Below the pieces are notes generated by a model. That model searched no databases and was not told the origin of the DNA. It saw only the letters and a program-made list of their open reading frames with translations. Shown one piece after another: positions 1,372 to 55,893 of a stretch of DNA of 64,000 nucleotides (position 1 is the first letter of the stretch; every line of letters starts with the position of its first letter). The DNA is from an uncultured Gaiellaceae bacterium (GTDB lineage: Bacteria > Actinomycetota > Thermoleophilia > Gaiellales > Gaiellaceae), in the NCBI GenBank assembly GCA_963744505.1, contig CAVUTL010000001.1:18664-82663 (forward strand). Reading direction: 5' to 3'. The position numbers and the translations under genes are program-made.

Positions 1372-1782
1372 CTACGCGGCAGGCGGGAGCGGCTCGTCCT
1401 CCTCGTCCTCGGCAAGCCGCCGCTGGAGGACGCTCCGCGAAAGAACCCCGACCAGACGATGGTGCTCATCGACGACCGGAACGCGCTCGGCGTCCTCGGT
1501 CTCGAGGAAGCGGAACGCCTCGTCGAGCGAGACGTCCGGCCCGATCGTGAAATGCGGTGCCTCGGCGATCGAGCGGAGCTCGGTCTCCCGCGGATCGAGG
1601 CCGAGCGCGATCACCTCGCGCACGAGCGTCTTCCGCGTGACCACGCCGACGAGGCGCTCGTCCTCCGTCACGTACACCGCCCGAACCTCGGGCCGCTGCA
1701 GCAGCTCGCCGGCAGCCTGCGCGGACGAGCTCGCGGGAAGCTGCCCGGGGTTCGAGACCATCGCATCGCGGACGGTGTTCAC
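1372..1782 (-). CDS. CBS-domain pair protein (136 aa)
   Basis: This is the tail of track ORF 1372..3066(-): VNTVRDAMVSNPG...ERLVGVVTRKTLV...HHRLVGVLSRSVL, which gives two CBS motifs. The GTG at 1782 overlaps the gdh stop (GTGA). Confidence 0.8.
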   Translation of the reverse strand: MNTVRDAMVSNPGQLPASSSAQAAGELLQRPEVRAVYVTEDERLVGVVTRKTLVREVIALGLDPRETELRSIAEAPHFTIGPDVSLDEAFRFLETEDAERVPVVDEHHRLVGVLSRSVLQRRLAEDEEDEPLPPAA

Positions 1783-3980: not shown

Positions 3981-5204
3981 ATGGTCATCGCAGCTCTCCT
4001 CATCGGTCTCGCTGTCGGCGCGCTCGCCGTCTCTATCGCCGTGCGCCCTGCTCTCGTGGAGCGCAGGCGTCGGATTCAGGAGGTGATCGCGCTCGAGCGC
4101 GCACTCGCCGGGGTCGAGGCGCGCCTCGAATCGGCGGAGGAGACGTCGGATGCACGGCTGCACGCCGCGGTGAAGTCGGCCTCCCTCGAGGTGTACGCGC
4201 AGACGAACACGGCACTCGTGGAGCTCGCCTCGACGAAGCTCGAAGGCACGGTCAAGCCTCTCGAGGAGTCGCTTCGAGCGGTCGGCGAGCGCGTCCAGGA
4301 GCTCGACCGGGCGCGCGCGAAGGGATACGGCGAGCTCAGCCGCCATCTCACCGATCTCGGCGAGCAGACCACGTCCCTCAGGAATGCGCTGCGGACTCCG
4401 CACACGCGCGGTCGGTGGGGCGAGATCCAGCTCAAGCGCGTTGTCGAGATCGCCGGAATGCTCCCGTACTGCGACTTCGCCGAGCAGGTCACCGCGTCGA
4501 GTGAGGACGGCCGTCTCCGCCCCGACCTCGTCGTGCGACTGCCGGGAGGCAAGCAGGTCGTCGTCGATGCGAAGGTCCCGCTCGCCGCGTACCTCGAAGC
4601 GCAGGAGACGACGGACGACGACGTTCGCAGGAGGAGCCTGGAAGATCATTCGCGACAAGTCCGAGACCACCTGCAGAAGCTGGCTGCGAAGTCGTACTGG
4701 CAGCAGTTCGCCGACAGCCCCGAGTGGGTGGTCATGTTCCTCCCCGACGAGGGCTTCTTCCGCTCGGCGTGGGAGCAGGATCCGAGCCTGGTCGAGACCG
4801 GAGTTCGGTCGCGAGTGCACATCGCCTCGCCGACGACGCTGATCGTGCTCCTGCAGGCGATTGCGCACGGCTGGCAACAGGAGAAGGTGGCAGAGGACGC
4901 GAGGGTCGTGCACGCGCTCGGGAAGGAGCTCTACGAGCGTATGACCGTCGCAGTCGGAACACATCTCGCGAAGCTCGGATCGACGCTCGACAAGGCCGTC
5001 GGTGCGTACAACGACACGGTGGGGTCGCTCGAGCGCCGCGTCCTTCCCACTGCGCGAAAGCTCGGTCAGACGACGCTGTCGGATCGGGAGCTCCCCGATC
5101 TCGAGCCTCGCTCCGCCCACACGGTGCCCGTTCAGGCGCCGGAGCTGGCCCCGGACGACAGGCTCATGGTTGCGATCCTCGCCGGCGACGCCGACGCGGC
5201 CTAG
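3981..5204 (+). CDS. rmuC: DNA recombination protein RmuC
   Basis: Track ORF 3933..5204. It has an N-terminal TM helix MVIAALLIGLAVGALAV, a coiled coil, then GRWGEIQLKRVVEIAGM...VVVDAKVPL typical of RmuC. I prefer ATG 3981 as the start to 3933. Confidence 0.8.
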   Translation: MVIAALLIGLAVGALAVSIAVRPALVERRRRIQEVIALERALAGVEARLESAEETSDARLHAAVKSASLEVYAQTNTALVELASTKLEGTVKPLEESLRAVGERVQELDRARAKGYGELSRHLTDLGEQTTSLRNALRTPHTRGRWGEIQLKRVVEIAGMLPYCDFAEQVTASSEDGRLRPDLVVRLPGGKQVVVDAKVPLAAYLEAQETTDDDVRRRSLEDHSRQVRDHLQKLAAKSYWQQFADSPEWVVMFLPDEGFFRSAWEQDPSLVETGVRSRVHIASPTTLIVLLQAIAHGWQQEKVAEDARVVHALGKELYERMTVAVGTHLAKLGSTLDKAVGAYNDTVGSLERRVLPTARKLGQTTLSDRELPDLEPRSAHTVPVQAPELAPDDRLMVAILAGDADAA

Positions 5205-6300: not shown

Positions 6301-7203
6301 GTGAGCGCCCGCTGGCTCGACCTCGTCGACCCGACCCGCGAAGAGCTCCTCGCGACGCTGCCGATCCACGTCGATCCGGAGGTCGTCGAGGCCCTGGTCG
6401 CGCGTACGGACGAGGGCCGCGAGCCACGCCCGCTTATCGAAGGACACGGCGCGTATGTGTTCGGCGTGCTGATCGCATCGCGTCCGCTCCCGCACGAGGA
6501 TCGCGTCGGCTACCAGGAGATCGATCTTGTCGCCACACCGGGCGTCGTCGTCACGGTGCGCAAGACACTGGGAGGAGGCGAGCCGTTCGACATCTCCGCG
6601 CTCCATCCGGCAGTCGAACGCAGTGCCGAGGCGGGCGAGCTCGTGCACCGGGTCGTCGACGACGTCGCGGACTCCTTTCTCGACTCGATCGACGCCGTGT
6701 ACGCGGAGATCGAGGAGCTCGAGGACGCGCTCGACAGGTGGCCGCCGAGCCGCGTGCGGGCACGACTCTCGGACCTGCGCCACGAGCTGCTCGACGGAAG
6801 GAGAACCGTCGCCGCGACACGCGCCGCAGTCCGACGCGTCCTCGACGGCCGCATCGAGATCGGCGACCATCTGCTCTTCCCACCGGAGATCGAGCGACTG
6901 TTCTCCGACACGTACGAGACGCTCGTGCGCGTGACCGAGGAGCTCGACATCGCGCGGGACCTCCTCGCCGGCGTGCGCGACCACCACCAGTCGAAGGTCG
7001 TCGAAGGTCAGGGCGACGTCAACAAGAAACTCACCGTGATCGCATCGCTCGTCCTCGTGCCGAGCCTGATCGTCGGCTACTACGGCCAGAACTTCGAGTC
7101 CGCCTTCGACGACACCTACTGGTCTATCGGCGCGTCCACCGGCCTGATCGTCCTCTCGACGCTCATCCAGCTCGCGATCTTCCGCTGGCGCCGCTGGATC
7201 TAG
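6301..7203 (+). CDS. corA: CorA-family Mg2+/Co2+ transporter
   Basis: 300 aa with a C-terminal YGQNF (GMN-type motif variant) between two TM helices. Confidence 0.8.
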   Translation: MSARWLDLVDPTREELLATLPIHVDPEVVEALVARTDEGREPRPLIEGHGAYVFGVLIASRPLPHEDRVGYQEIDLVATPGVVVTVRKTLGGGEPFDISALHPAVERSAEAGELVHRVVDDVADSFLDSIDAVYAEIEELEDALDRWPPSRVRARLSDLRHELLDGRRTVAATRAAVRRVLDGRIEIGDHLLFPPEIERLFSDTYETLVRVTEELDIARDLLAGVRDHHQSKVVEGQGDVNKKLTVIASLVLVPSLIVGYYGQNFESAFDDTYWSIGASTGLIVLSTLIQLAIFRWRRWI

Positions 7204-7242
7204 ATGTGCGCGCGAACGTCCCTAAACGCGGCCGCCTCGCGT

Positions 7243-11600: not shown

Positions 11601-12001
11601 AAGGCCTCCCCACGGAGAACGGCCGCACCGGAGTCCTCGAGCTCGCGGAAGCGAGGATCGAGACCGGCCGCGAACGGATGCGCGCGTAGCAGCCTGTTGC
11701 AGAAGCCATGGACCGTGGAGATCCACGCGCCGTCGAGCTCACGCGCGAGGTCGGGTCGTCCGCGCTCCCGCAGCGCGGCGCGGATGCGGGTCCGCAGCTC
11801 CCCGGCTGCCTTGCGCGTGTACGTGATGACGAGGATCGAATCGACGTCGATGCCGCGATCGCAGACGGCCCGGACGTAGCGCTCGACGAGAACCGAGGTC
11901 TTCCCGGTCCCTGCGCCGGCCGAGACGAAGACGGATCCTTCCGCCTCGACGGCCGCGAGCTGCTCTTCGTTCAGCGCCGATTCCATCTCGACGACGGTCA
12001 C
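8639..12001 (-). CDS. UvrD-type helicase with a C-terminal RecB-like nuclease (AdnB/AddA-like subunit)
   Basis: ORF 8639..12580, with the real start at GTG 12001 (or ATG 11986): MESALNEEQLAAV...SAGAGTGKTSVL. UvrD motifs run throughout. The C-terminus has YKSN...Y nuclease motifs and the Cys cluster CSDCPALDLVC. Confidence 0.9.
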   Translation of the reverse strand: MTVVEMESALNEEQLAAVEAEGSVFVSAGAGTGKTSVLVERYVRAVCDRGIDVDSILVITYTRKAAGELRTRIRAALRERGRPDLARELDGAWISTVHGFCNRLLRAHPFAAGLDPRFRELEDSGAAVLRGEAFVRALDAFCADGDAERLRLLATYRADGLRRMLTGVYATLRSAGRELVLELGERPSVESAAEAFRTEAEVLSADAAATEVQRRNATEALRFLGGGAAPERIVDLSAFACRGVRAASYEAARKGAERSALEELAALDRDLLQELLDGFGAEYAAAKRRESVVDFEDLQLAARDLLRDDASVREATQLRFRMVMVDEFQDTNRLQCELIDLVAHPDLTEVFTVGDEFQSIYGFRHADLEVFRERRAQAPTLLALARNYRSRPQVLAAVNHLFIDEFGDDYQPLAASAEFPDPVFGHPVELLVTDKASFAETSEHWRTGEARRIASRVRELVDSGEAEPGDIVVLFAAGTDAERYEEALRREGLPTYRATGRGYFGQQQVVDLLAYLRLLHNRYDDVALTTVLASPFVGVSNDALVLLRRNAPRRPLFTALERTLPEQLDPSDERLLRAFLQRYERLVRASTRIGLEPLCERVVSEHDYDLAVLARWDGARRFANIRKLGRLAREYEAVRGADIAGFVRFVREQDALGAKELEAVAEEEGGGAIRLLTIHAAKGLEFKVVIVADAGRDVGGPRGPDEIVALSDGRFGFRMLHPVRGRREPVFDWDDVKEAAGDQERAERLRLYYVAMTRAIDRLIVSGAIEPARSADRTTPIGWVLDRLAAHEAVAIADETSIELDRGDARFVLTVARHDGDDLPESVEEEDTSELQLLLFDELPTGRPRLGIELPALAAIPAPPVHDVRRLSYSALALFERCSYRFYAERVLGLPPREAVNGSGMGSGLAATETGDAVHRLLELVPLDAPVPPSVEDLAESVRAWYPEASDGELERIAALVEAYCASPLAARLAELEGAAPERPFTFEHDGVLIRGRLDVLWLDGDRALVVDYKSNALEERTPAEIVESEYGLQRLVYALVCLRGGSSEVEIAYQFLERPEEVVSTSFTRDDTAQLESELSAAIARIQAGDFRPTPSEFACSDCPALDLVCAGPRLAFAR

Positions 12002-12042
12002 GCTCTCGCCACCCGGCACATCGGCCACAGGTCGCACCAGGC
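11998..12042 (-). repeat. Relic second copy of the last 15 codons of the adnA-like gene (AWCDLWPMCRVARA-stop), abutting the adnB start
   Basis: 39 of 45 nt are identical to 12129..12173. All 6 differences fall on third codon positions. Its TGA overlaps GTG 12001 (GTGA). Confidence 0.85.
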
Positions 12043-12104
12043 GCGAAGCGCCTTGTCCGCGAAGCGGACCAGTGGAGGGGGCGTGGGGGAACCGGGAGGT
12101 TCCC
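12037..12104 (+). repeat. Intercistronic multi-hairpin repeat, copy 1 (adnA/adnB spacer)
   Basis: CCAGGCGCGAAGCGCCTTGTCCGCGAAGCGGACCAGTGGAGGGGGCGTGGGGGAACCGGGAGGTTCCC. It aligns with 35524..35598 and 55821..55887. Confidence 0.85.
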
Positions 12105-12128
12105 AGACTCGCGAAGCAGCCCTCATTC

Positions 12129-15044
12129 TCACGCTCTTGCCACCCGACACATTGGCCAGAGATCGCACCACGCCGGGCAGCCGTCGCCCTTGGGGTCGTG
12201 TTGCACGTCGCCGGCACGGATGCGGCCGGCGTTCTCTGCCGCACGCTCGCGCGCGGATTCGATCTGCGCCCAGAACGTCTCCTCGTCGAGGTAGTCGTCG
12301 CGGGCGAACCCGGGCAGGTCGTCGCGCGCGCTCTCGCGGAGCATCCCGCGCGTGAGCCGCCGGCCGGCGAGCGCCCGATAGACGCCGCCCAGCGGCTCCA
12401 CTCCGACGAGATCGCGAAGCGCGAGGATGTACAGAGGGATCTGCAGCCGGAGCTCGCGGTCGATCTCCCGCGCTGAGTGCGCGCCCTTGCCCGACTTGTA
12501 GTCCTGGACGATGCCGCGGGCGCTGAACGGGTCGATGTCGATCCGGTCGATCTTCCCGGAGAGCCAGATGCCGTCCGCAAGAGGCAGCCCGCGCTGCAGC
12601 TCTGGCGCGGCGCGCTCCGAGCCGAACGACACCTCGAGCCTGCGCGGGACGAATCCGACCCCGGACGCGGCTTCGTCGCGCAAGAAGCCTTCGAGGTCCG
12701 AGCGGAGCGTGTGGCGCAGCTCGGCAGCCTGCAGCTTCGTGAGATCGAGACGCACGCCGGACTCGAGGGCGTCGTCGAGGCAGCGGTGGGCGAGCACGAT
12801 TGCGCGCTCGAGGTTCTCGGGAGTGACGCGCTCGGAGTCGAGCTCGCGCGGGATCATCGCGTAGAACCGATGCAGCGTCGTGTGCAAGACCTGCCCGCGC
12901 AGGATCGGGTCCGGCTCCGCATCGATCTTCTTCGGGTCGATGATGCGCTCGACCAGCCACGCCGAGGAGCAGTCGGCGAAGCGCTCGAGCTCGGTCGCGG
13001 AGAAGACCGTCTTCGCCGCGAACGGCTCGACAGCGGCCGGGCTTCGGAGTGTGGTCGTGCGCTCGAAGGCGCGCCGCGCGCGGTCGAGCCGGCGCGACCA
13101 GTCGTTCGCCGCCGCGAGCGCGTTCGCACCTTCCGTGTCGTCGGCGGCGAGGCGGACGAGCGCCCGGAGCCGCTCGCGCTCGCTGGGCGCCGTCTCGAGA
13201 GGCCATGTCAGGGCCGAAAGCGGCCTCCGCCGCGTCGCGCGCTGGACTTCCGCTTGGTCGAACAGCGACCTCACGTCCTCCCAGAAGGGGCTGGGCTCCC
13301 GCGGCGTGCCCTCGTCGCCGGCCGCCTCGCGCACGAGAACGAGCCGCTGGGCTGCTCGCGTGCACGTCGTATAGAAGAGGTAACGATCGCGAGCGACGGC
13401 GTCGGGCTGCTCGAGACGACCTCCGAGCTCACGACGCGCATCGTCGCTCAGGAGCGGTGAGGGCCGAGCTCGGCGCGGGAACACGCCTTCCTCGAGCCCG
13501 AGAACGAAGACGACGTCGAACGCGCGCGTGCGCGCACGCTCGTGGTCGAGGACGGCCACGCGGCCGGCCTCGGGGCCGCCCGGGGGGAGCCGCGTGCGCT
13601 CGAGGGCGACGACCACGTCTTCCCCTCCCACGTCGAAGCCACCCTCGGCAAGAGCACGGAGCTCGTCGAGAGCGCGTGCTGCGGCTCGATGCGCGCGGGC
13701 GTCAGCTCGTGCGTCGCCGCCGGTCGGAGGCGCTTCGAGGCCCCAGGCGTTGCGAAGCATCGCATCGAGCAGCCGCCTCGCCGCTGCGATCGGATCGGGC
13801 TCGGCGCGTAGTGCAACGAGTGCGGGCACAGGTGCGCCACGGAGCCGCTCGCTCTCCTCGTCGACACGCGCGGGATCGGCGATCGCGCGTCCGCGCAGCC
13901 TGCCTTCCACGAAGTCGACCGATCGCCGCTCGAGCCCGGAGAACGGAGAGCGCAGGAACGCGAAGAGATCGCCGCGCGAGCCGCCGGTCCACTCGTATCG
14001 GAGGAGCGCAATCAGGGCCCGGCCGAGCGGAGCCTCGCCGAGACGACGGCCGTGCTCGACCGTGAACGGGACCTCGAGCTGCGTCAGGGCTGCCTCGAGG
14101 GGCGCGCGCCACCGATCCGGCGACTCGCATACGACAGCGACCCGCTCGGGCGCGGTCCCGCCGCGGAGAAGTGACGCGAGCTCGCTCGCGAGCAGCTCCA
14201 CCGTCCCGTGCGTTCCCGCTCCCTCGAGAAAGCGGATTGCGCCGTCGAGCGTCGGGGCGGCGCATGCGTCATCCGAGAACAGCTCGCGCTCGACGTGAGC
14301 GAGTGCGGCGGGCGTCATACCCGCCTCCGCACGCGGAAGCTCCTCGATCTTCCCCCCGGCGAGCCCGGCCAGATCGGCGACCGTCCGCTCGAGCGCCTGG
14401 AACACCGCTCGGCCCGGCTCGTACGGGATCGACACCGTCACGTCGGCGCGTGCGGCGAGCGCCTCGAGCAGCGCCCACTCCGCCCCGGTGAGATCCTCGA
14501 ACCCGTACGCGAAGACGGGCGAACCGTGCCAGGAGCCGAGGTCTCCGCGGAGACGCTCGACTGCGAGCCGGCGGAGCCCGTCGCGATCCAAGAGGCCGAG
14601 GGCAGCGAGCTCCTCGCGATACGAGGCGACGAGCAGTGCGAGATCGCCCGCGAGGGCGCTCGGGTGGACGAGTCCCGACTCGAGCTCGCCGATCGTCTGG
14701 AGCAGCGTGTCGGCGAATCCGGCGGTCGTCGCCGACGTGCTCAGCTCGTCGAGCTCGACGCGCGCCACGGCGCGTCGAACGGCCAGGGTGCGTTGGATCT
14801 CGGAGGCGATGGGCAGTGCGTCGCTGCCTCCGTCCGCGACATGCCGGAAGAGATCGTCGAACGTCCCGACGGTGCCCGCGAGCAGCGCCGGGCGTCGACG
14901 AACGAGGTCGCGCTCGACGCGATCGACGTCGACCCGATTCGGCACGAGAAGCCACGGATCGCGGTCGAGAACGTCGACATAGCGCTCCAGAAGCAGCGCG
15001 ACCTTGCCGACGTGAGCCGGCCCCAGGACGAGCGAGAGACCCAT
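12129..15044 (-). CDS. PD-(D/E)XK nuclease / inactivated-helicase subunit (AdnA/AddB-like), 971 aa
   Basis: The track ORF is intact. N-terminal degenerate P-loop LGPAHVGKV. The C-terminal nuclease region has DYKSGK and the Fe-S type Cys cluster CPAWCDLWPMC. Confidence 0.85.
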   Translation of the reverse strand: MGLSLVLGPAHVGKVALLLERYVDVLDRDPWLLVPNRVDVDRVERDLVRRRPALLAGTVGTFDDLFRHVADGGSDALPIASEIQRTLAVRRAVARVELDELSTSATTAGFADTLLQTIGELESGLVHPSALAGDLALLVASYREELAALGLLDRDGLRRLAVERLRGDLGSWHGSPVFAYGFEDLTGAEWALLEALAARADVTVSIPYEPGRAVFQALERTVADLAGLAGGKIEELPRAEAGMTPAALAHVERELFSDDACAAPTLDGAIRFLEGAGTHGTVELLASELASLLRGGTAPERVAVVCESPDRWRAPLEAALTQLEVPFTVEHGRRLGEAPLGRALIALLRYEWTGGSRGDLFAFLRSPFSGLERRSVDFVEGRLRGRAIADPARVDEESERLRGAPVPALVALRAEPDPIAAARRLLDAMLRNAWGLEAPPTGGDARADARAHRAAARALDELRALAEGGFDVGGEDVVVALERTRLPPGGPEAGRVAVLDHERARTRAFDVVFVLGLEEGVFPRRARPSPLLSDDARRELGGRLEQPDAVARDRYLFYTTCTRAAQRLVLVREAAGDEGTPREPSPFWEDVRSLFDQAEVQRATRRRPLSALTWPLETAPSERERLRALVRLAADDTEGANALAAANDWSRRLDRARRAFERTTTLRSPAAVEPFAAKTVFSATELERFADCSSAWLVERIIDPKKIDAEPDPILRGQVLHTTLHRFYAMIPRELDSERVTPENLERAIVLAHRCLDDALESGVRLDLTKLQAAELRHTLRSDLEGFLRDEAASGVGFVPRRLEVSFGSERAAPELQRGLPLADGIWLSGKIDRIDIDPFSARGIVQDYKSGKGAHSAREIDRELRLQIPLYILALRDLVGVEPLGGVYRALAGRRLTRGMLRESARDDLPGFARDDYLDEETFWAQIESARERAAENAGRIRAGDVQHDPKGDGCPAWCDLWPMCRVARA

Positions 15045-16579: not shown

Positions 16580-17674
16580 ATGCGAGTCGCGGTTCCGAAG
16601 GAGACGGCTCCCGGCGAGCGTCGCGTCGCGCTCGTCCCCGAGACGATCTCGAAGCTCCGCGAGGTCGGGTTCGAAGTACGTGTCGAGCGCGGTGCCGGAG
16701 AGCACGCGGGGTTCTCGGACGCGGAATACGAGAGCGCCGGAGCCGAGCTCGCCGACGCGGGAACGCTGCTCGCCTCGGTCGACGCGATCGCATGTGTGGC
16801 ACGTCCCGCAGCGGGCGTCGTGACCTCGATCGCGTCGGGCACGGTCGTCATCGGCTTTCTGGAGCCACTCACCGACCCCGAGGGCATCGCTCGGCTACGC
16901 GAACAGGGAGTCGTCGCGTTCGCAATGGAGTCGATTCCACGGATCACCCGTGCACAGTCGATGGACGCGCTTTCATCACAGGCGACCGTCGCCGGGTACA
17001 AGGCGGTCGTGCTCGCCGCCGATCGCGTGCCACGCCTCTTCCCCATGCTGATGACCGCCGCAGGGACGATCGCACCGGTGCGGGCTCTCGTCATCGGGGC
17101 GGGCGTCGCCGGGCTGCAGGCGATCGCGACGGCGCGGCGGCTCGGTGCCGTCGTCTCCGCGTTCGACGTGCGCTCCGCGGTCGCGGAGCAGGTGGAAAGC
17201 CTCGGCGCGGCGTTTCTCGACCTCGGCGTCCGTGCGGAAGAGACGACCGGCGGATATGCGAGCGAGCTCACGTCAGAGCAGCAGGCGCAGCAGCAGGCAG
17301 CGCTCGAGGAGCGGATCCCCGACTTCGACGTCGTGATCACGACGGCCGCAGTACCGGGGCGCCCGGCGCCGAAGCTCATTCCCACAAGCGCCGTCGAGCG
17401 CATGCGGCGCGGCTCGGTCATCGTCGATCTCGCCGCCGAAACGGGCGGGAACTGCGAGGTCACAAGGCCCGGGGAGGTCACTCAACACGGCGGCGTGACG
17501 GTGATCGGCACGACGAACCTCCCGTCCACGATGGCGTACCACGCGAGCCAGCTCTACTCCCGGAACGTCGGAGCGCTGCTCTTCCACCTCGCGCCCGAGG
17601 GCGAGCTCGCGCTCGACTGGGACGACGAGATCACCAGCGGGGCGTGCGTTACCCGACCAGAAGGCGCGGCGTGA
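16580..17674 (+). CDS. pntAA: NAD(P) transhydrogenase subunit alpha, part 1
   Basis: MRVAVPKETAPGERRVALVPE, Rossmann motif VIGAGVAGLQAIATARRLGA. Confidence 0.9.
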   Translation: MRVAVPKETAPGERRVALVPETISKLREVGFEVRVERGAGEHAGFSDAEYESAGAELADAGTLLASVDAIACVARPAAGVVTSIASGTVVIGFLEPLTDPEGIARLREQGVVAFAMESIPRITRAQSMDALSSQATVAGYKAVVLAADRVPRLFPMLMTAAGTIAPVRALVIGAGVAGLQAIATARRLGAVVSAFDVRSAVAEQVESLGAAFLDLGVRAEETTGGYASELTSEQQAQQQAALEERIPDFDVVITTAAVPGRPAPKLIPTSAVERMRRGSVIVDLAAETGGNCEVTRPGEVTQHGGVTVIGTTNLPSTMAYHASQLYSRNVGALLFHLAPEGELALDWDDEITSGACVTRPEGAA

Positions 17675-17979: not shown

Positions 17980-19364
17980 TCTCTGATCCGGACGTCGTCG
18001 GCCTCCTCTACCTCGTCGCGATCGTCTGCTTCGTCCTCGCGCTCCGCTTCCTCTCCTCGCCGAAGCACGCACGGCGTGGGAACTGGCTCGGAGGCGTCGG
18101 GATGCTGGTCGCGATCGCGACGACGCTGCTCATCGAGGGGATCTCCAACTGGGCGCTGATCGTCGTGGCGGCGGCCATCGGGAGCGTCGTGGGCCTGATC
18201 GGCGCGCGCAAGGTGAAGATGACGGCGATGCCGCAGATGGTGGCCCTGTTCAACGGGGTCGGCGGCGGTGCGGCGGCGCTCGTCGCGCTCGCCGAGTTTC
18301 ACGAGCTCGACGGCGTTCTCGTCTGGGACGAGGCGCTCTCCGTCGCACTGTCGGCTCTCATCGGCTCGATCTCGTTCTCGGGGTCGCTCGTCGCCTTCGC
18401 GAAGCTCCAGGAGCTCGTCAGCGGGCGGCCGATCGTGTTCCCCGGTCAGAACGTCGTGAACGTCCTGATCCTCGGCGGGGCCGCGGTACTCGGCGTCGCG
18501 ATCGTCGCCGGGCTCGAGGCCGAGTGGGCGATCCTCGCGCTGATCCTCCTCGCGCTCGTCTTCGGCGTGATGTTCGTGCTTCCGATCGGCGGCGCGGACA
18601 TGCCCGTCGTCATCTCCCTCCTGAACGCGTTCACGGGGCTCGCCGCCTCGGCGACGGGTTTCGTCCTCGACTCGACCGTCCTGATCGTCGCCGGAATGCT
18701 CGTCGGCGCGTCGGGCACGTTGCTCACGCTGCTCATGGCCAAGGCGATGAACCGCTCGGTCGCGAACGTCCTCTTCGGCGCGTTCGGGCAGGTGCAGGCG
18801 GGCACCGGCCAGGCTCGTGCCGACGACGGGCGCACGGTACGCGCGACGACGGCGGACGACGTCGCCGTGCAGCTCTCGTTCGCGCGCAAGGTCGTCGTCG
18901 TCCCGGGCTACGGGATGGCCGTCGCGCAGGCACAGCACGACGTGCGCCAGCTCGCCGATCTCCTCGAGGAGCGCGGTGTCGACGTGAAGTACGCCATCCA
19001 CCCGGTCGCCGGCCGGATGCCGGGGCACATGAACGTGCTCCTCGCCGAAGCCAACGTGCCGTACACGCAGCTCTCCGAGATGGACGACATCAACCCGGAG
19101 TTCCCACAGACGGACGTCGCGCTGGTGATCGGCGCGAACGACGTCACGAACCCGGCCGCGCGGAGCGACACCGGCAGCCCGATCTACGGCATGCCCATCC
19201 TGGACGTCGACAAGGCCGCCAGCATCGTCGTCATGAAGCGCTCCATGAACCCCGGGTTCGCCGGCATCGACAACGAGCTCTACCTCGATCCGAAGACCAC
19301 GATGCTCTTCGGTGACGCGAAGGAGTCGGTGCTGAAGCTGATCTCCTCCGTGAAGTCGTCCTAG
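17976..19364 (+). CDS. pntB: NAD(P) transhydrogenase subunit beta
   Basis: 462 aa with a polytopic N-terminus and a C-terminal NADP(H) domain (VPGYGMAVAQAQH...GANDVTNPAA). The start is a GTGA overlap. Confidence 0.9.
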   Translation: MISDPDVVGLLYLVAIVCFVLALRFLSSPKHARRGNWLGGVGMLVAIATTLLIEGISNWALIVVAAAIGSVVGLIGARKVKMTAMPQMVALFNGVGGGAAALVALAEFHELDGVLVWDEALSVALSALIGSISFSGSLVAFAKLQELVSGRPIVFPGQNVVNVLILGGAAVLGVAIVAGLEAEWAILALILLALVFGVMFVLPIGGADMPVVISLLNAFTGLAASATGFVLDSTVLIVAGMLVGASGTLLTLLMAKAMNRSVANVLFGAFGQVQAGTGQARADDGRTVRATTADDVAVQLSFARKVVVVPGYGMAVAQAQHDVRQLADLLEERGVDVKYAIHPVAGRMPGHMNVLLAEANVPYTQLSEMDDINPEFPQTDVALVIGANDVTNPAARSDTGSPIYGMPILDVDKAASIVVMKRSMNPGFAGIDNELYLDPKTTMLFGDAKESVLKLISSVKSS

Positions 19365-34144: not shown

Positions 34145-34489
34145 TCAGTTCGCCCAGCTCGCGACCGCAGCCGGAAGGGAGACGGCGCCGATCCGATCGA
34201 TCATGTCTGCATCGGCGGCGTAGAGGTTGTGCAGCGGAACGATCCTGATCTCGGGCTCACCCGTGATCCCGAGCTCGCTCACGACAGGCAGCAGACGCTG
34301 CTCGAGGAAGCCGTTGAAGGCTTGCTCGGTCTGCCAGATCTCGCATACCTCGACACCCTCGTCGGTGACAGTCGCCATGTGCAGCACCGCGCCGGCAGGC
34401 GGGTTCGCGTCGAGGCCGAGCCTCGCCATGACGGCGTCGTACTGGTCGGATGTCAGGCCCGGCCAGTGCATGGTCATCGCGACAGCCAT
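34145..34489 (-). CDS. Small hypothetical protein (114 aa); ABM/dimeric alpha-beta-barrel fold is my tentative guess
   Basis: MAVAMTMHWPGLTSDQYDAVMARLGLD...VCEIWQTEQAFNGFLEQRL. SD AAGGAGGA lies before ATG 34489. Confidence 0.55.
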   Translation of the reverse strand: MAVAMTMHWPGLTSDQYDAVMARLGLDANPPAGAVLHMATVTDEGVEVCEIWQTEQAFNGFLEQRLLPVVSELGITGEPEIRIVPLHNLYAADADMIDRIGAVSLPAAVASWAN

Positions 34490-34587
34490 TCCCAGTCCTC
34501 CTTGCCGGTGTCGCTTCGGGTTCGGACTAAGCGTACGCGGGCGTGCGGTCGCATGCAACGAGGTGAAGCCCTCGATCGAGGGATTCG

Positions 34588-35455
34588 TCATCCGGCGATC
34601 AGCGCGCGAGCGTAGTCGCCGGCGTCGAACGGGCGCAGGTCGTCGACGCCCTCCCCCACACCGACGAGCTTCACCGGCAGTGCCAGCTCGACCGCGATCG
34701 CGATCGCCACGCCGCCGCGCGCGCTGCCGTCCAGCTTGGTGAGCGCGACGCCCGTGACACCCGCGCTGGCGCCGAAGAGCTTCGCCTGCTGCAGGCCGTT
34801 CTGACCCGTCGTCGCGTCGACGACGAGGAGCGTCTCGTGCGGGGCGCCTTCGATCCGCCCCTCGATGACGCGCCGCACCTTCTCGAGCTCGGCCATGAGA
34901 TTCGACTGCGTGTGCAGCCGGCCCGGCCGTGTCGACGATCGCCACGTCGCGTCCGCGGGCCCGCGCGGCCTCGACGGCGTCGAAGGCGACCGCGGCCGGG
35001 TCCGCCCCGCGCGGCGCGCCGACGAAGTCGGCGCCCGCGCGCTCCGCCCAGATCTCGAGCTGCTCCTCGGCGGCCGCGCGAAACGTGTCGGCGGCCCCGA
35101 CGAGCACCGAGCGCCCGTGCTCGTGCAGCTTGCGCGCGAGCTTGCCGATCGTCGTCGTCTTCCCCGTGCCGTTGACGCCGACGACGAGGATCACGCTGGG
35201 CTTGGCGGTCAGCTCGAGCGTCGGCGGCTCGCCGAAGAGCGCCTCGACCTCGCCGACGAGCGCGTCTTCGAGGTCCCCGGTGACTCCGCGCGCTTCGAGC
35301 CGCCGCACGAGCTCGGCTGTCGCGGGGACGCCGACGTCGCTCCGGATGAGCGCCTCCTCGAGTCGCTCCCACGCCTCGTCGTCGGACGAGTCGAACGCGG
35401 CCGACGCGAGCTCGGCGGTCAGTGCCTGGCGGCTCTTCGCGAGCGACTCGCGCAT
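34588..35455 (-). CDS. ftsY: SRP receptor FtsY (NG domain), with a frame break near 34929-34937; the N-terminal limit is uncertain
   Basis: VVGVNGTGKTTTIGKLA...GAADTFRAAA...VAIVDTAG, then after the break RLHTQSNLMAELEKV...GVALTKLDGSARGG (ORF 34588..34896). Upstream, ...TGFF in another frame followed by SRMRESLAKSR suggests a second indel and a longer N-terminus. Confidence 0.85.
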
Positions 35456-35523
35456 GCGCGACGAAGAAGCCCGTGCGCTCGGGCTCGTCCTCTCGGTGCA
35501 GCCTCGTCCCCGAGGAGCTCCGA

Positions 35524-35598
35524 CCAGGTCGCGGCTCACGGGGACAACCTCGGTTGTCCCGTGAGCGTGGAGGGGTGTGGGGAACCGGGAGGTTCCCC
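35524..35598 (+). repeat. Intercistronic multi-hairpin repeat, copy 2 (smc/ftsY spacer)
   Basis: CCAGGTCGCG-GCTCACGGGGACAACCTCGGTTGTCCCGTGAGC-GTGGAGGGGTGTGGGGAACCGGGAGGTTCCCC. It has the same 3' core as copies 1 and 3 and a different middle hairpin. Confidence 0.8.
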
Positions 35599-35672
35599 AC
35601 GTCTTCAAGAGGAAGGGGGCACGCGGGGAAACGTGGCTTCCCTCGCGACCGTTCGCCGAAGGCGAACGGTGC

Positions 35673-38330
35673 TCACGCTGTGGCTGCGAGGGCGTGCTGG
35701 TGCTGCGGGAGGCGCCTCGACACGACCTGCGAGACGCCGTCGGGGCCCATCGTCACGCCGTAGAGGATATCCGCGGCCTCCATCGTCCTCTTCTGGTGCG
35801 TGACGACGACGAACTGCGCGCGATCGGAGTAACGGCGGAGGAGCTCGACGAAGCGGGCGATGTTCGTGTCGTCGAGGGCAGCTTCGACCTCGTCGAGCAG
35901 ATAGAAGGCGCACGGCCGGGCGAGGAACAGCGCGAAGAGGAACGAGATCGCGCCGAGCGCCTTCTCGCCGCCCGACAGGAGCGACAGCCGCGTGATCCGC
36001 TTGCCCGCGGGTCGGAGCTCCACCTCGACGCCCGGCTCACCCCCTTCGTCGTCCGCCTCGACGAGTCTGAGGCGGCCCTCACCGCCGGGGAAGAGCGTGG
36101 AGGCGACCTCTTCGAAGTGCTCGGCAACCGCCGTCGAAGGTCGCGGCGAAGCGCCGCTCGACCGTCGCCGTGAGCTCCGCGCGGAGCGCGTCGAGCTCTT
36201 CGAGGCTCCGCTCGAGATCCTCGCGCTGCGTCTTCAGGTCGTCGAGACGCTCCTTCTCGGCCTCGTACTCCTCACGTGCCAGCGGATTGACCTGACCGAG
36301 CGTCGCGCGGCGCACCTCGAGCCGGTCGACGCGGGTCGACGAGCTCGTCGCGGTCCTCGCCCTCGGCCGGCTCGACCTCGCCCGCCGACTCGAGCCGCCG
36401 GCTCGCCTCCGCGACATCCGCGTCGATGTGCGCGATCTCGACCTCTGCGGCCGTGACCGCCGCGCTGGCCTCCTCGAGCTCGCGTCGGAGGTTCACCTCG
36501 GTCGCGCCGAGAGTGCGTAGCTCCTCGCCGAGCTCGCCCGCTCTCGTCGAGCCGGCGTCGACGCGCGCGCGGAGCGGTGCCTCGAAGCGGCCGGCCGCGT
36601 GTTGCGCCGCCTCGATCCCGTCGCGCAGCGCGGACGCGAGGTCGACGAGTCGCGTCGAGCATCGCCGCGTCGATCGACGTGGCGCGCAAGCCGGGGCGCC
36701 TTCCCGAACGCCGCCTCCGCGACACGCGCCTGCTCTGCCGCAACTTCCGCGGCCCGACTTGCGGTAGCGACCTCGTCCTCGAGAGTCGGCGGCTTCGGCG
36801 GCGAGCGCCGTGCGCCGTCCCTGGAGCTCGAGCAGAACCGCCTCCGCGGTCTCGCCGACGAACCAGAGCTCGCCGCGAGCCGGGTCGTAGCCGAAGCCCT
36901 CGGGCGTGACGGAGGGCGCCGTGACGTCGAGCAGCGCGTCGAGCGGGACGACCGGGTACTCGCCGACGAGATCCTGCGGAGAGCGTCCGGCGAGCACCGT
37001 GAGGCTTCCGAGCCCTGCCGAGCGAGCGCGCTGGAGAAGCGCAAGCCCGACCGCAGGATCGTCGGCGATGACCGCGGCCGCGCGCGTGCGAAGTGCGGCC
37101 GCGACGGCTCGCTCGGCGCCCGGCTCGACATCGAGCGCGGCGAGCGCGAGACGCGCGCCGTCCTCTGCGAGGGCACGCGCCGCGGGAGGCAGGCCCTCCT
37201 GCTCGGCGAGAGCCTGGTCGAGGGCACGCACGCGCTCGCGGACGAGCGACGCGCGCTCGGCCAGAGCGGTGCGCTCCCGTTCCGTGCGCCGTGCGGCCTC
37301 CGCGGCGCGCACGGCGTCGAGCTCGAGACGAGCAAGCTCGCTCTGGCCATCGGCAGCTTCCGGTTCCGCAGGCGTTTCCGCCCGGAACCGCTCCAGCAGC
37401 TGCAGAGGCCGACTCGGATCTCAGCTCGAGCCGCTCGATCCCGCCCTGCAACCGATAGCGGGCGGCAACCGCCGCCTCACGCCGCCCGGCGGCGTCGGAG
37501 AGCTCCTCCTCGGCTCGGGCGCGATCGGCGAGCAGCCCCTCGAGTCTTCCCTGCGCCCCTCGCTTCGCGAACGCTGCGGTGTCGCGGCGCTCCTCGGCCT
37601 CCGCCCGGCGTGAGCCCGAGTCGGCGAGATCGAGCTGAGCGATCCGCGCCCGCAGGCCGGCGACCTCGACCGCGAGCTTCTCCGCGCGCTCGGCCGCCGT
37701 CGCCTGCAGCGCGAGCGGCCGCAAACGCTTCCGCACTTCGTCTTCGACGTCACGAGCCCGCTCGACCTGGAGCGCGACGCGCGCGAGCTTCATCTCGGCG
37801 CGATGACGACGGCGCTTGAACTTCCCGAGGCCTGCGGCCTCCTCGACGAACGCGCGCCGATCCTCCGCCTTGGACGCGAGAATCTGCTCGACCTTCCCCT
37901 GCCCCACGATCGAGTGCATCGCCGCCCCGAGGCCGACGTCGGCGAGGATCTCGACGAGATCCGTGCGCCGCACGGCTGCGCGGTTGACGAGGTACTGGCC
38001 TTCGGCCCCACGGACGAGCCGTCGCGCGATCGAGACCTCGGAGAAGTCGAGGTCGGGCCAGGCGCCGTCCTCGTTGTCGAAGACGAGCTCGACCTCGCAG
38101 TGCTCCGCCGCCTTGCGATCGCCCCCGCCCGCGAAGAGGACGTCGTCGGGCTTCTCGGCTCGCAGCTCGGACGGCGCCAGCGAGCCGGCCGCCCAGACGA
38201 TCGCGTCGGCGATGTTGGACTTCCCGGAGCCGTTCGGCCCGACGATGACGGCGACGCCCGGCTCGAGCGAGATCTCGAGCGAGTCCGGAAACGACTTGAA
38301 ACCGCGGATGCGGAGCGAGCGCAGGTGCAC
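35673..38330 (-). CDS. smc: Chromosome partition protein Smc, split over at least 5-6 frame breaks as assembled
   Basis: N-terminus VHLRSLRIRGFKSFPD...GPNGSGKSN (ORF 36234..38399). The coiled coil and hinge are pieces in ORFs 36272..37312, 36493..37350 and 36079..36417. The C-terminus is LSGGEKALGAISFLFALF...YLLDEVEAALD...VVTHQKRTM (35673..36023). Confidence 0.85.
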
Positions 38331-38433
38331 CGAGGCCGGATTCTCGCGGCTGCTCCGGACAGCGAAACGCGCCGAGCCGAAAGCGTCGAGCTGACGCACA
38401 GTTGTTACACATAGGTGCTACATTCGTGCCACG

Positions 38434-41273: not shown

Positions 41274-42860
41274 CTATAGCGGGAGCCGGATCTCCCTCGT
41301 CGGTGCGATCCGCTCGAGGAAGCGCCGATCGTGCGAGACGACGACGAGTGTTCCCTCGTAGTCGACGAGGGCCTTCTCGAGCTGCTCGACCGCCTCGAGG
41401 TCGAGGTGATTCGTCGGCTCGTCGAGGATCAGCAGGTTGACCCCACGCGCCTGCAGCTCAGCGAGATGGGCGCGCGTGCGCTCGCCCGGCGAGAGCGACG
41501 AGCAGGGTCGGCTGATGTGGTCGGGACCGAGGCCGAACTTCGCAAGGAGTGTGCGCGCATCCACCCGGACGATGCCGGTGCGGCTCACGAGCTCGTCGAC
41601 GAGAGCGACCTCACCAGCGTAGGCATCGCGCTCCTGTCCGATGGCACCGATGACCGTCCGCCGGCCGACGCGCCGCTCGCCCTGAGCCAATGGCACCTCG
41701 CCGAGCAGCATCCCGAGGAGCGTGGACTTCCCGGAGCCGTTCCGCCCTGCGATCGACAGTCGCTCTCCAGGAGCGAGGTCGACCACGATCGGTCCAAGAC
41801 TGAAGAAACCGCGCAGCGCGACCGCATCGGCCAGCTCGAGCACGAGCTCCGACAGGCGTGGTCCAGCCTGGAGTGTGAGGTTCAGCTCCCACGGCTGGAA
41901 TGGCTTCTCGGGGAGCTCGTTGCGCTCGAGGAGACGTTCAGCCTGGCGTACCTTCGTCTCGAGCGCATGGGTCGCCCGTCGATCCTGCCCACCCGTCTTG
42001 TCTCCGAGATAGGCGCCCTTCGTGCGGGCCTCGGACCGCCGCGTGCTCAGGAGCTCGGTGAGCCGCCGACGCCGGAGCTGCGCTTGCGCGAACTCCGCGA
42101 GCGCGGCCGCACGTTCCGTGTCGCGTGCCACCTCGTAGTCGCTCCAGCCGCCCGCCCACTCTCGCACCCGGTGCGTGTCGGGCTCGATCGACGCGATGCT
42201 GCGCACGGTTCGATCGAGGAAGTCGCGATCGTGCGAGACGACGACGAGCGCGCCGCGGTAGGCCCCGAGAAACCGCTCGAGCCGCTCGAGCCCCTCGAAG
42301 TCGAGGTCGTTCGTCGGCTCGTCGAGGAGCAGGAGGTCGAAGCGCGACAGGAGGATGGCCGCGAGATCGACGCGCGCCGCCTCGCCGCCGGAGAGACCGT
42401 CGACTGCTCGGTCGAGGTCGACGCCAAGACCCAGCTCCGCACACGTGGCTCGCGCGCGCACATCGAAGTCACCTCCCCCGAGCGCGACGAGGCGGTCGAG
42501 CGCCGCTGCAAATCGCTCGTCTGCCGATTCCCCGCGAGCGAGCGCCCGAGCGGCTCCCTCGAGCTCGCGCTCGGCGGCGGAGACGCCGGTGCGGCGAGTG
42601 AGTGTCCCGAGCACCGACGCGCCAGGCTCCGCCGAGCGCTGCTGCTCGAGGTACCCGATCGTCAGCCGCTCGGGTGCGCGCGTCACCGACCCGTCGTCCG
42701 GCTGCTCGAGCCCGGCGGCGATCCGGAGCATCGTGGTCTTGCCCACGCCGTTCGGCCCGACCAGACCGATACGCGCCAGCGGGCCGATCGTCAGCGTGAC
42801 CTGATCGAGAATGACGTGGGCGCCGTAGTGCTTGCCGACGCCGGCGAGCTGAACTCGCAT
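41274..42860 (-). CDS. ABC-F family ATPase (two ABC domains, no TM domain)
   Basis: ATG 42860 with SD GGAGG. It has two Walker A sites ([18 protein letters not shown]), two LSGGE signatures, and a basic interdomain linker. Confidence 0.9.
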
Positions 42861-43074
42861 CGACGGACCTCCGAGACCGTGGTGATAGTGCGCAACCAGC
42901 GTGCGCACGGGTACGGGAATGGGGCGCGTCAGTCCGTCATAGGTCGGCGCCGAGGCGCCGCCGGCCATCGTAGACGACGTGGTTAGGGCGATGTAAGGCC
43001 GTGTAAGAGGTCCGCAAGGGTTCGCGACTCTCAGCCGGTCGAGCGGTCATAACCATGACGACCAAGGAGGAGCA

Positions 43075-55806: not shown

Positions 55807-55820
55807 GTGCGGATCGTAGC

Positions 55821-55887
55821 CCGGCGCGTAGTGCCTGTCCGCGGAGCGGACCAGTGGAGGGGGTCTGGGGGAACCGGGAGGTTCACC
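55821..55887 (+). repeat. Intercistronic multi-hairpin repeat, copy 3 (ribE/ribBA spacer)
   Basis: CCGGCGCGTAGTGCCTGTCCGCGGAGCGGACCAGTGGAGGGGGTCTGGGGGAACCGGGAGGTTCACC. Confidence 0.85.
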
Positions 55888-55893
55888 CGGCTT

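Follow-up and report, generated by a model that had tools for sequence, protein, structure and literature searches.

An apparently lineage-specific family of small, hairpin-rich inserted repeats in Gaiellales operons, with a predicted relay reading frame at stop/start overlaps

Mycobacterial interspersed repetitive units (MIRUs; Supply et al. 1997, as recounted in PMC12548453) insert at start codons within operons; in that account, their internal open reading frame (ORF) overlaps the upstream stop codon and is coupled to the downstream gene at a -4 (RTGA) spacing, and the insertion has little effect on expression. Rickettsia palindromic elements (RPEs) are palindromic repeats able to lie in frame within genes, and encode a conserved peptide (PMC10969869). 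Here we describe a hairpin-rich repeat, three copies of which are present in a 64,000-nt stretch of DNA (hereafter, the window; positions 18,664 to 82,663 of contig CAVUTL010000001.1, GenBank assembly GCA_963744505.1) from an uncultured Gaiellaceae bacterium. All three copies are insertions, with empty sites in close relatives. At a probability of roughly three in four, we consider them members of a family of small non-autonomous insertion elements of Gaiellales, built of hairpin modules around a common core, in which translational coupling would be rebuilt by a relay ORF.

The window (69.9% G+C) contains exactly three occurrences of the 17-mer GGGGAACCGGGAGGTTC, each on the plus strand, as compared to a mean of 0.25 per dinucleotide-preserving shuffle, with none of 100 shuffles reaching three. 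The copies lie at the adnA/adnB (copy 1), smc/ftsY (copy 2) and ribE/ribBA (copy 3) junctions. Their neighbours, all on the minus strand, were confirmed with Pfam as an AddB/AdnA-like nuclease, an AdnB-like helicase (UvrD and PD-(D/E)XK domains), SMC, FtsY, RibE and RibBA. The original prediction, made from the window's letters alone, had placed three copies at these junctions, and sequence, folding and repeat finder agree on them and on their hairpins; copies 1 and 3 do align end to end, with GTGGAGGGGNNNTGGGGNAACC in common. Copy 2 had to be redrawn: its core (hairpin H3), linker and 15-bp hairpin (H4) had been recognised, but these make up just the 3′ half of a larger element (Table 1), what was taken for its left end (35524-35536) is ftsY coding sequence, and the 15-bp hairpin contains the ftsY start codon. 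The motif CC(A/G)GGCGCG, proposed as a left end common to the three copies, is not homologous in copy 2, while the CCA of copy 1 is a piece of duplicated target. Searches of the window with nhmmer profiles of the two classes defined below detected no additional diverged copies beyond the three.

In four relatives (84–89% identity), the adnA/adnB junction consists of one RTGA stop/start overlap, either ATGA or GTGA (e.g., ...GGTGGCAAGACC-ATGA-CCGTCGTCGAG). In the window, a 42-nt target is present there twice, with five mismatches, and the two target copies enclose 89 nt of inserted DNA; the repeat finder reports this duplication as 45 nt, 87% identical. Because the target is duplicated around the insert, the true adnB start is the GTG at the end of the downstream target copy. 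An ORF begins at the GTG that overlaps the addB-like stop, crosses the element and the duplicated target, and closes with a TGA that overlaps the adnB GTG. At smc/ftsY, three loci (L204–L206, the prefix L denoting loci fetched from other assemblies), whose SMC C-termini are 95–97% identical to that of the window, have a single GTGAGC overlap, where the window reads GTGAGC-[element]-GTGAGC. The same junction is filled in L207 (a 93% relative, with a longer, two-unit class B element), L113 and L082. With L204–L206 empty and L207 filled, presence of the smc/ftsY element is thus polymorphic among very close relatives.

Copy 3 is located between the ribE stop (TAG 55896-55894) and a box, GGGCTACGATCC (55822-55811), that precedes the ribBA GTG (55806-55804); an open frame crosses the element and continues into ribBA. 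The ribE/ribBA junction is empty in 79 of 80 relatives' loci, a set that includes a few with a different downstream gene or an early end, and the empty loci include the closest relatives (79–82% amino-acid identity); a typical empty junction reads TGA-GGGCTACGATCCGCGC-GTG. The sole filled locus among the 80, L169 (70% identity), carries two tandem class A units at the same point. Copies 1 and 2 were therefore inserted at RTGA stop/start overlaps and copy 3 just upstream of the start of the next gene.

The original prediction had named, as an outcome that would speak against it, a repeat confined to these three copies and absent from relatives. A scan of one genome per species (GTDB) with the pattern GGAGGGGN{2,6}GGGGAACCGGGAGGTTC identified at least 119 loci; among the matches listed, 80 loci come from 73 assemblies, all of them Gaiellaceae, Gaiellales or Thermoleophilia, or metagenome-assembled genomes (MAGs) classified no further than Actinomycetota or Actinomycetes. 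We sorted 127 core matches into class A (44), class B (69) and others (14). Both classes have the core GTGGAGGGG(G)-N3-[(G)GGGGAACC-GGGA-GGTTCCCC(C)] in common. Class A, to which window copies 1 and 3 belong, measures about 70 nt and consists of two C(GNA)G mini-hairpins (HA1 and HA2) plus the core; on the window plus strand it reads GGCGC-GNA-GCGCC, T, GTCCGC-GNA/GNRA-GCGGAC, CAGT, GGAGGGGG, N3, GGGGGAACC-GGGA-GGTTCCCCC, where the N3 pairs with the three bases 3′ of the hairpin. Class B (window copy 2) measures about 137 nt and has four hairpins, H1–H4. In gene sense, its 5′ part is RTGA(NN), H1 AACGCTCGCC-TTCG-GCTCGCGTT, H2 CGTGGGGGAAAC-CATG-TTTCCCCCACG and GCCCCCTTCTTCTTGAGAGC; its 3′ part is H3 GTGGGGAACC-TCCC-GGTTCCCCAC, ACCCCTCC(A/C)C and H4. 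The last hairpin is locus-specific, and its 3′ arm holds the downstream gene's start codon and the codon after it. Class B stands between two copies of the RTGA(NN) stop/start overlap, the downstream RTG being its end in all resolved copies.

The density is about one element per 20–70 kb, with three in the 64 kb of the window and four loci found by profile searches in 276 kb of relatives' DNA that had been chosen via ribE and not via the repeat. Most copies are single; tandem units occur in a few loci (L169, L076, L207, L006). The family pattern has no match in viral contigs, nor a class B sequence in plasmids by BLAST. As originally suspected, no Rfam motif accounts for the repeat: at gathering thresholds, the only family passing in the whole window is tRNA-Leu, and in the three spacers the best hit at permissive E-values (0.49) scores far below the gathering scores. 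No paper on Gaiellales repeats turned up in a literature search. The family appears to be specific to this lineage (class Thermoleophilia, Actinomycetota) and previously undescribed.

Further insertions can be read from the fetched loci, in which six more class B filled/empty pairs were found; together with smc/ftsY, they amount to seven insertions into the RTGA of a start codon. In one pair, the ATG that the element entered belongs to a leaderless uvrA preceded by a TAGAAT box. Two of the empty sites lie in the window itself (Table 1), and the junction at 17.67 kb is occupied by class B in L105 and, in L057, by class A in opposite orientation. In 24 of the 36 resolved class B copies, both ends agree in the three bases that follow the RTG, as opposed to 15.8 under permutation (p = 2e-4); where the ends deviate from the AGC consensus, they match in 6/16 cases versus 0.8 expected. 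Examples of the transition from empty to filled are GTGACCAC, which becomes ATGACCAC at both ends, and GTGAAGGTC, which becomes ATGAACGTC at both ends. The class B target duplication measures 6–9 nt (six, GTGAGC, at smc/ftsY). Class A may be flanked by longer direct repeats that end at the element boundary, of 27 nt in L031, 25 nt in L013 and 16 nt in L079, and by repeats of tRNA 3′ ends in L076 (24–48 nt) and L046 (22 nt), where the null distribution has its 95th percentile at 10 nt. The idea of a miniature mobile element, one of several roles suggested at the outset, is hence borne out by empty sites for all three window copies, by duplications at copies 1 and 2 and by the number of loci.

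The class B consensus has an open frame from the RTG of the upstream RTGA to the TGA that overlaps the downstream RTG. With start codons assigned from the hairpins, 29/36 copies have a start-to-start length of 2 mod 3 and 28 have a complete coupled ORF; 34 of these 36 copies are open in frame 0, none in frame 1 and 23 in frame 2. Assignment by ORF yields 36 complete cases out of ~50. The arrangement is kept across length variants of 128–188 nt, including copies with an extra hairpin module. The relay ORF counts 43–63 codons and shows no conserved peptide, and subfamilies read the H3 core in different frames (AWGTSRFPTP versus VGEPPGSPTPPP). What is conserved at the sequence level is the DNA and its structure, together with the openness and phase of the frame, rather than a peptide.

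The hairpins themselves are maintained by compensatory change. Double changes are seen in 16 of the 31 pairs predicted for class B (H2 in up to 24 sequences, the base of H3 in 18–22, H4 in many); in class A, the base of H3 covaries in 7 and 11 sequences, and HA1 occurs as GGCGC/GCGCC, GGCGG/CCGCC, GGCCG/CGGCC and GTCGC/GCGAC. Orthologous class B copies have diverged about as much as the neighbouring coding DNA (0.68–0.88 identity); H4 at these sites diverges faster (0.46–0.86), its pairing being kept. A GGAG, GAGG or AGGA motif stands in the H4 loop, 6–8 nt before the start codon, in 21/52 copies versus 11.5% of shuffles.

On the explanation we favour, the upstream RTGA copy would keep the upstream stop and at the same time start the relay ORF. 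A ribosome ending the upstream gene would re-initiate at the overlapping RTG, translate the element, melting H1–H4 on its way, and stop at the TGA overlapping the downstream start, by which the termination-reinitiation coupling otherwise lost by the insertion would be restored. H4, with the start codon in its stem and often a GGAG-type Shine-Dalgarno sequence in its loop, would block independent initiation in the absence of relay translation, and downstream translation would thus come to depend on the relay. The elements would be tolerated as translation-neutral by design. We infer relay translation and coupling from the arrangement of frames and hairpins. For the window copies, the original prediction was right to call the repeat operon-internal, and a link to translation exists; this link would, however, consist of the conserved relay ORF between two RTGA overlaps and the start-codon hairpin instead of the anti-Shine-Dalgarno function of the CCUCC tracts then proposed.

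The hairpins are most likely needed for propagation as folded single-stranded DNA (ssDNA), and perhaps also aid mRNA stability. The small loops on the window plus strand are all C(GNA)G triloops or GNRA-type tetraloops. GNA loops of the d(GCGAAGC) type are unusually stable in ssDNA, and the loop motifs offer a lead towards an ssDNA intermediate. Without exception, H4 has a 5′ arm complementary to the duplicated target hexamer; candidate sources of this complementarity are a guide function, the chemistry of insertion and selection at a later stage. One could imagine hairpin ssDNA being copied into RTGA overlaps, with the target chosen by base-pairing of the H4 arm (guide-like and, in principle, reprogrammable) and duplications of variable length, 6–48 nt, as the outcome; we regard this extended scheme as doubtful. 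If true, the relay ORF, the start-codon hairpin and its own Shine-Dalgarno sequence would make up a self-contained, translation-neutral cassette.

With the flanking coding strand inferred from the phase of G+C at third codon positions, class B lies in gene sense in 38 cases versus one. Class A is co-directional with its flanking genes in sense in nine cases and in antisense in six, and is found in two convergent and four divergent spacers. The uniform orientation of the window copies, noted in the original prediction, is thus true of these three and is no rule for the 70-nt type, since class A is found both ways; orientation with transcription as a rule for the whole family was rejected on the same counts. 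Class A also lies in frame inside the gene after ribBA in L116 (~7134-7217) and L166 (~4543-4625), and 28/45 class A copies, which are not independent of one another, are free of stop codons in all six frames, versus 11% of shuffles. By analogy, class A behaves like a palindromic invader of the REP/BIME type (repetitive extragenic palindromes and bacterial interspersed mosaic elements) or of the RPE type.

Several observations weigh against insertion elements of this kind. No convincing target duplication was found at copy 3, just a 5-nt recurrence of CTACG, and elsewhere the duplication varies from 6 to 48 nt, a variability that fits no single known transposition chemistry. Repeat finder and folding detected no terminal inverted repeats, only local hairpins, and in neither class does one end repeat the other in inverted form. 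There are no inverted pairs among the 127 core matches, copies within one locus always being on the same strand. By eye, no transposase is evident in the ORF between the arrays of L006, no systematic protein scan having been made. Some copies are retained at orthologous sites across species, and an empty site might, in principle, have arisen by precise excision and not be ancestral. The invariance of the core is partly by construction, as the family was gathered with an exact core pattern. Finally, the relay ORF of copy 2 ends 69 nt early in this assembly; an indel in the assembly is as likely as decay, because smc and ftsY, too, have the appearance of frameshifted genes and gene calls are fragmented in the closest relatives, which are long-read MAGs.

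The stems kept by compensatory changes, the mRNA-strand fold of copy 2, of much greater stability than in shuffles (z -4.66), and orthologous retention at smc/ftsY (window, L082, L113, L207) and nuoA/B (L038, L042) would also suit a host cis-regulatory RNA, such as an attenuator, an RNase processing or stabilising site or a riboswitch-like leader, that sets the ratio between cistrons, mobility being incidental or ancient. Yet the genes on either side have no functional relationship; class A is found both ways round, in spacers between divergent and between convergent genes, next to tRNA genes and in frame within genes; presence is polymorphic between relatives 93–98% identical; Rfam gives no match and the three spacers have no U-tract terminator; and the GNA/GNRA loops of class B are on the strand antisense to the mRNA. 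We therefore think a regulatory RNA unlikely as the explanation of the family, although individual retained copies may have a host regulatory role. Multi-copy genes for a small protein of ~45 amino acids, inserted in operons, would explain an ORF that overlaps its neighbours at start and stop and is intact in most class B copies; whole hairpin modules are nevertheless tolerated as insertions, and stem variation is compensatory instead of falling on synonymous sites. This idea, the least probable of those considered, was rejected on the frame of the H3 core, which differs between subfamilies.

The original prediction had drawn attention to CCUCC tracts, and indeed ACCUCCC and CCCCUCCAC occur on the mRNA strand of all three window copies, with a GGAG-type motif just downstream, in the H4 loop, in ~40% of class B copies. 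They could be taken for a translational insulator whose tracts pair with, or titrate, Shine-Dalgarno sequences. Against this, the class A sequence is found as often on the opposite strand relative to the genes (++ 9, -- 6, mixed 6), in which case the mRNA would carry GGAGG. One CCUCC, as loop and arm of the stable H3, is unavailable for pairing, the relay ORF of class B and of copy 1 spans both tracts, and tracts and H4 loop do not covary. As class A is found in both orientations and within genes, the tracts are not a general function of the 70-nt type, and we hold the insulator to be very improbable. The same plus strand, with its G-runs and its C(GNA)G or GNRA loops, might have been thought the functional one, as in a cis-antisense small RNA gene or a G-quadruplex site. 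However, neither a sigma-70 promoter-like site nor a hairpin with U-tract was found by scanning both strands of the three spacers, and Rfam is again silent; the G-runs are the arms of H3, so that the hairpin competes with any quadruplex; and neither role has support beyond the loop motifs, which ssDNA hairpins explain equally well. This reading of the plus strand seems more improbable still.

Insertion elements with a relay ORF being the reading we prefer, they can be set beside the described systems. To judge from PMC12548453, MIRUs resemble them as short actinobacterial operon repeats with start-codon insertion, a -4 coupled ORF and no associated transposase. This arrangement was found in class B (28/36 or 36 of ~50, by the two start assignments) and in copy 1, and not in copy 2. 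The differences are that the host is Thermoleophilia here and Mycobacterium there; that the present elements are hairpin-rich, with compensatory stems, the downstream start codon inside a hairpin and a duplicated RTGA(NN); that their core is common to a second, orientation-free 70-nt form; and that copies are mostly single, whereas MIRUs form tandem arrays like those of variable-number tandem repeats. By arrangement, class B and copy 1 may therefore work like a MIRU; membership is not claimed, because the hosts are Gaiellales, the copies are mostly single and the present elements add hairpin structure and a start-codon hairpin.

REP/BIME elements and REPINs with their RAYT transposases are likewise short GC-rich palindromes in many copies, often intercistronic, modular or mosaic, with part-unit clusters (as in L006), and their strand-specific hairpins suggest recognition of ssDNA; class A comes closest to them. 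Here, however, we recognised no conserved 5′ GTAG-type tetranucleotide, the 127 core matches include no inverted doublets of the REPIN kind, copies being solitary or in direct tandem, and no RAYT gene was seen in the fetched loci, which were not scanned systematically for proteins. To our knowledge, RAYT/IS200-type chemistry produces no long target duplications, whereas such duplications flank some of the present copies. The in-frame class A copies after ribBA (L116, L166) recall RPEs, from which the family differs in that most copies are intergenic, the sequence is unrelated, the host phylum is another and the class B core is read in different frames. [quoted passage not shown] If the scheme of targeting by the H4 arm imagined above were true, the family would spread without terminal inverted repeats or a linked transposase, in a way that has no described precedent among bacterial REPs or MITEs. 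In kind, the family is a REP/RPE-like palindromic repeat combined with MIRU-like, coupling-preserving insertion.

If our explanation is true, repeats that enter stop/start overlaps and restore coupling by means of a relay ORF would have just one clear example before this one, the MIRUs; the present family comes from an actinobacterial class other than theirs and known almost solely from metagenomes. Clean filled and empty sites, visible duplications and structured modules make the insertion rule and the coupling relay testable. For annotation, the elements yield spurious small ORFs and extended or misplaced start codons (adnB, ftsY), and they lie in homopolymer-rich DNA that is error-prone in long-read assemblies. 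Their presence/absence polymorphism between near-identical strains could serve as a strain marker for Gaiellales in soil metagenomes.

Table 1. Coordinates of the elements, their parts and empty sites in the window
Feature	Position	Strand	Basis or remark
Copy 1, class A element	12040..12106	- (strand of flanking genes)	folding, repeat finder, alignment
Copy 1, HA1 GGCGC-GAA-GCGCC	12040-12052	read on +	
Copy 1, HA2 GTCCGC-GAA-GCGGAC	12055-12069	read on +	
Copy 1, linker CAGTGGAGGGGGCGT	between HA2 and H3	read on +	
Copy 1, H3 GGGAACC-GGGA-GGTTCCC	12087-12104	read on +	
Extra inserted 22 nt between addB-like stop and copy 1	12107..12128	-	includes partial HA2 right half CGCGAAGCAGCCC
Upstream target copy: last 13 codons of AddB/AdnA-like gene + GTGA	12129..12170	-	stop TGA 12131-12129
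Downstream target copy, GTGA at its end = AdnB-like start	11998..12039	-	GTG 12001-11999
Copy 1, relay ORF (predicted), 44 codons	11998..12132	-	VRMRAASRVWEPPGSPTPPPLVRFADKALRAWCDLWPMCRVARA followed by stop
Copy 2, full class B element incl. both GTGA(GC) copies	35536..35676	-	comparison, folding, repeat finder
Copy 2, 5′ GTGA = smc stop	35676-35673	+ coordinates	
Copy 2, H1	35648-35670	+ coordinates	
Copy 2, H2	35622-35647	+ coordinates	
Copy 2, C/T-rich linker	35601-35621	+ coordinates	
Copy 2, H3	35577-35600	+ coordinates	
Copy 2, linker CCCCTCCAC	35567-35576	+ coordinates	
Copy 2, H4	35534-35566	+ coordinates	encloses ftsY start GTG (35539-35537)
Copy 3, class A element and junction bases	55823..55893	-	alignment, folding, relatives' empty sites
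Empty site, GTGA stop/start overlap	1779..1782	-	orthologous junction has class B in L007
Empty site, GTGA overlap, transhydrogenase-like genes	17671..17674	+	

Around copy 2, smc (35673-38417, minus strand) is split into several reading-frame pieces, with a break at ~36233, for instance, and for its last piece homologues cover just 82%. The ftsY gene (34145-35539, minus strand) has one extra base right after the start (CGCGACC versus TACACC in relatives), and its SRP54 GTPase domain is half matched. Either these frameshifts are assembly indels or the essential genes are pseudogenes, of which the latter is unlikely. In L209 (2617-3232), a small gene and a PIN-domain gene, toxin-antitoxin-like, lie between smc and ftsY at the junction that is filled in the window. 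Within copy 2 (35577-35647), H2 and H3 of class B are near-copies (GTGGGGGAAAC/GTTTCCCCCAC versus GTGGGGAACC/GGTTCCCCAC) that can cross-pair; alternative folds are therefore available to class B. Pairing is also conceivable between the 5′ arm of H4 and the target hexamer's 5′ copy.

Most of the 80 relatives keep the DNA sequence of the box before ribBA, GGGCTACGAT, even where their proteins are only 65–80% identical. Its window version (55811-55822, minus strand), 6 nt before the ribBA GTG, includes TACGAT at 55818-55813. The actinobacterial -10 hexamer is TANNNT. Because TACGAT fits it and the start codon follows ~7 nt downstream, ribBA may have its own promoter and a leaderless mRNA. Copy 3 is inserted directly upstream of this -10-like box, where a -35 region would lie.

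The settings of class A are varied. In L013 (~1790-1990), it stands right before the start codon of a gene (CCCCCG-ATGA-CC), and 25 nt of the 5′ coding sequence of that gene, CACATCTACGCGCACGAGCA(T/C)CCGG, are duplicated upstream of the element; L084 has class B at the orthologous start codon. Class A adjoins tRNA genes in L076 (2543-2687) and L046 (3175-3203), as well as in L016 and L074, and in the first two a second copy of the tRNA 3′ end (GGTTCGA(A/T)TCC...CCA) lies beyond the element. Duplication of a tRNA 3′ end occurs at integration sites of tRNA-targeting elements. The in-frame copies in L116 and L166 lie in an acidic, low-complexity N-terminal region, translated as ...PVRESEPGEGASGEPGGSP..., of a gene whose orthologue starts at ~54526 in the window. 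In L006 (3600-4200 and 5180-5330), mosaic arrays of part-units with repeated AACCGGGAGGTTCCCCCAGCGTC, truncated cores and extra GNA hairpins flank both sides of a ~320-aa ORF without obvious function, in the manner of BIME clusters.

Unrelated to the family, the window contains a 135-nt direct repeat (41306-41440 and 42206-42340; 79% identical, 900 nt apart) within one 564-aa ORF (41274-42968, minus strand), which is probably an ATPase gene with an internal duplication, the repeats belonging to its two halves.

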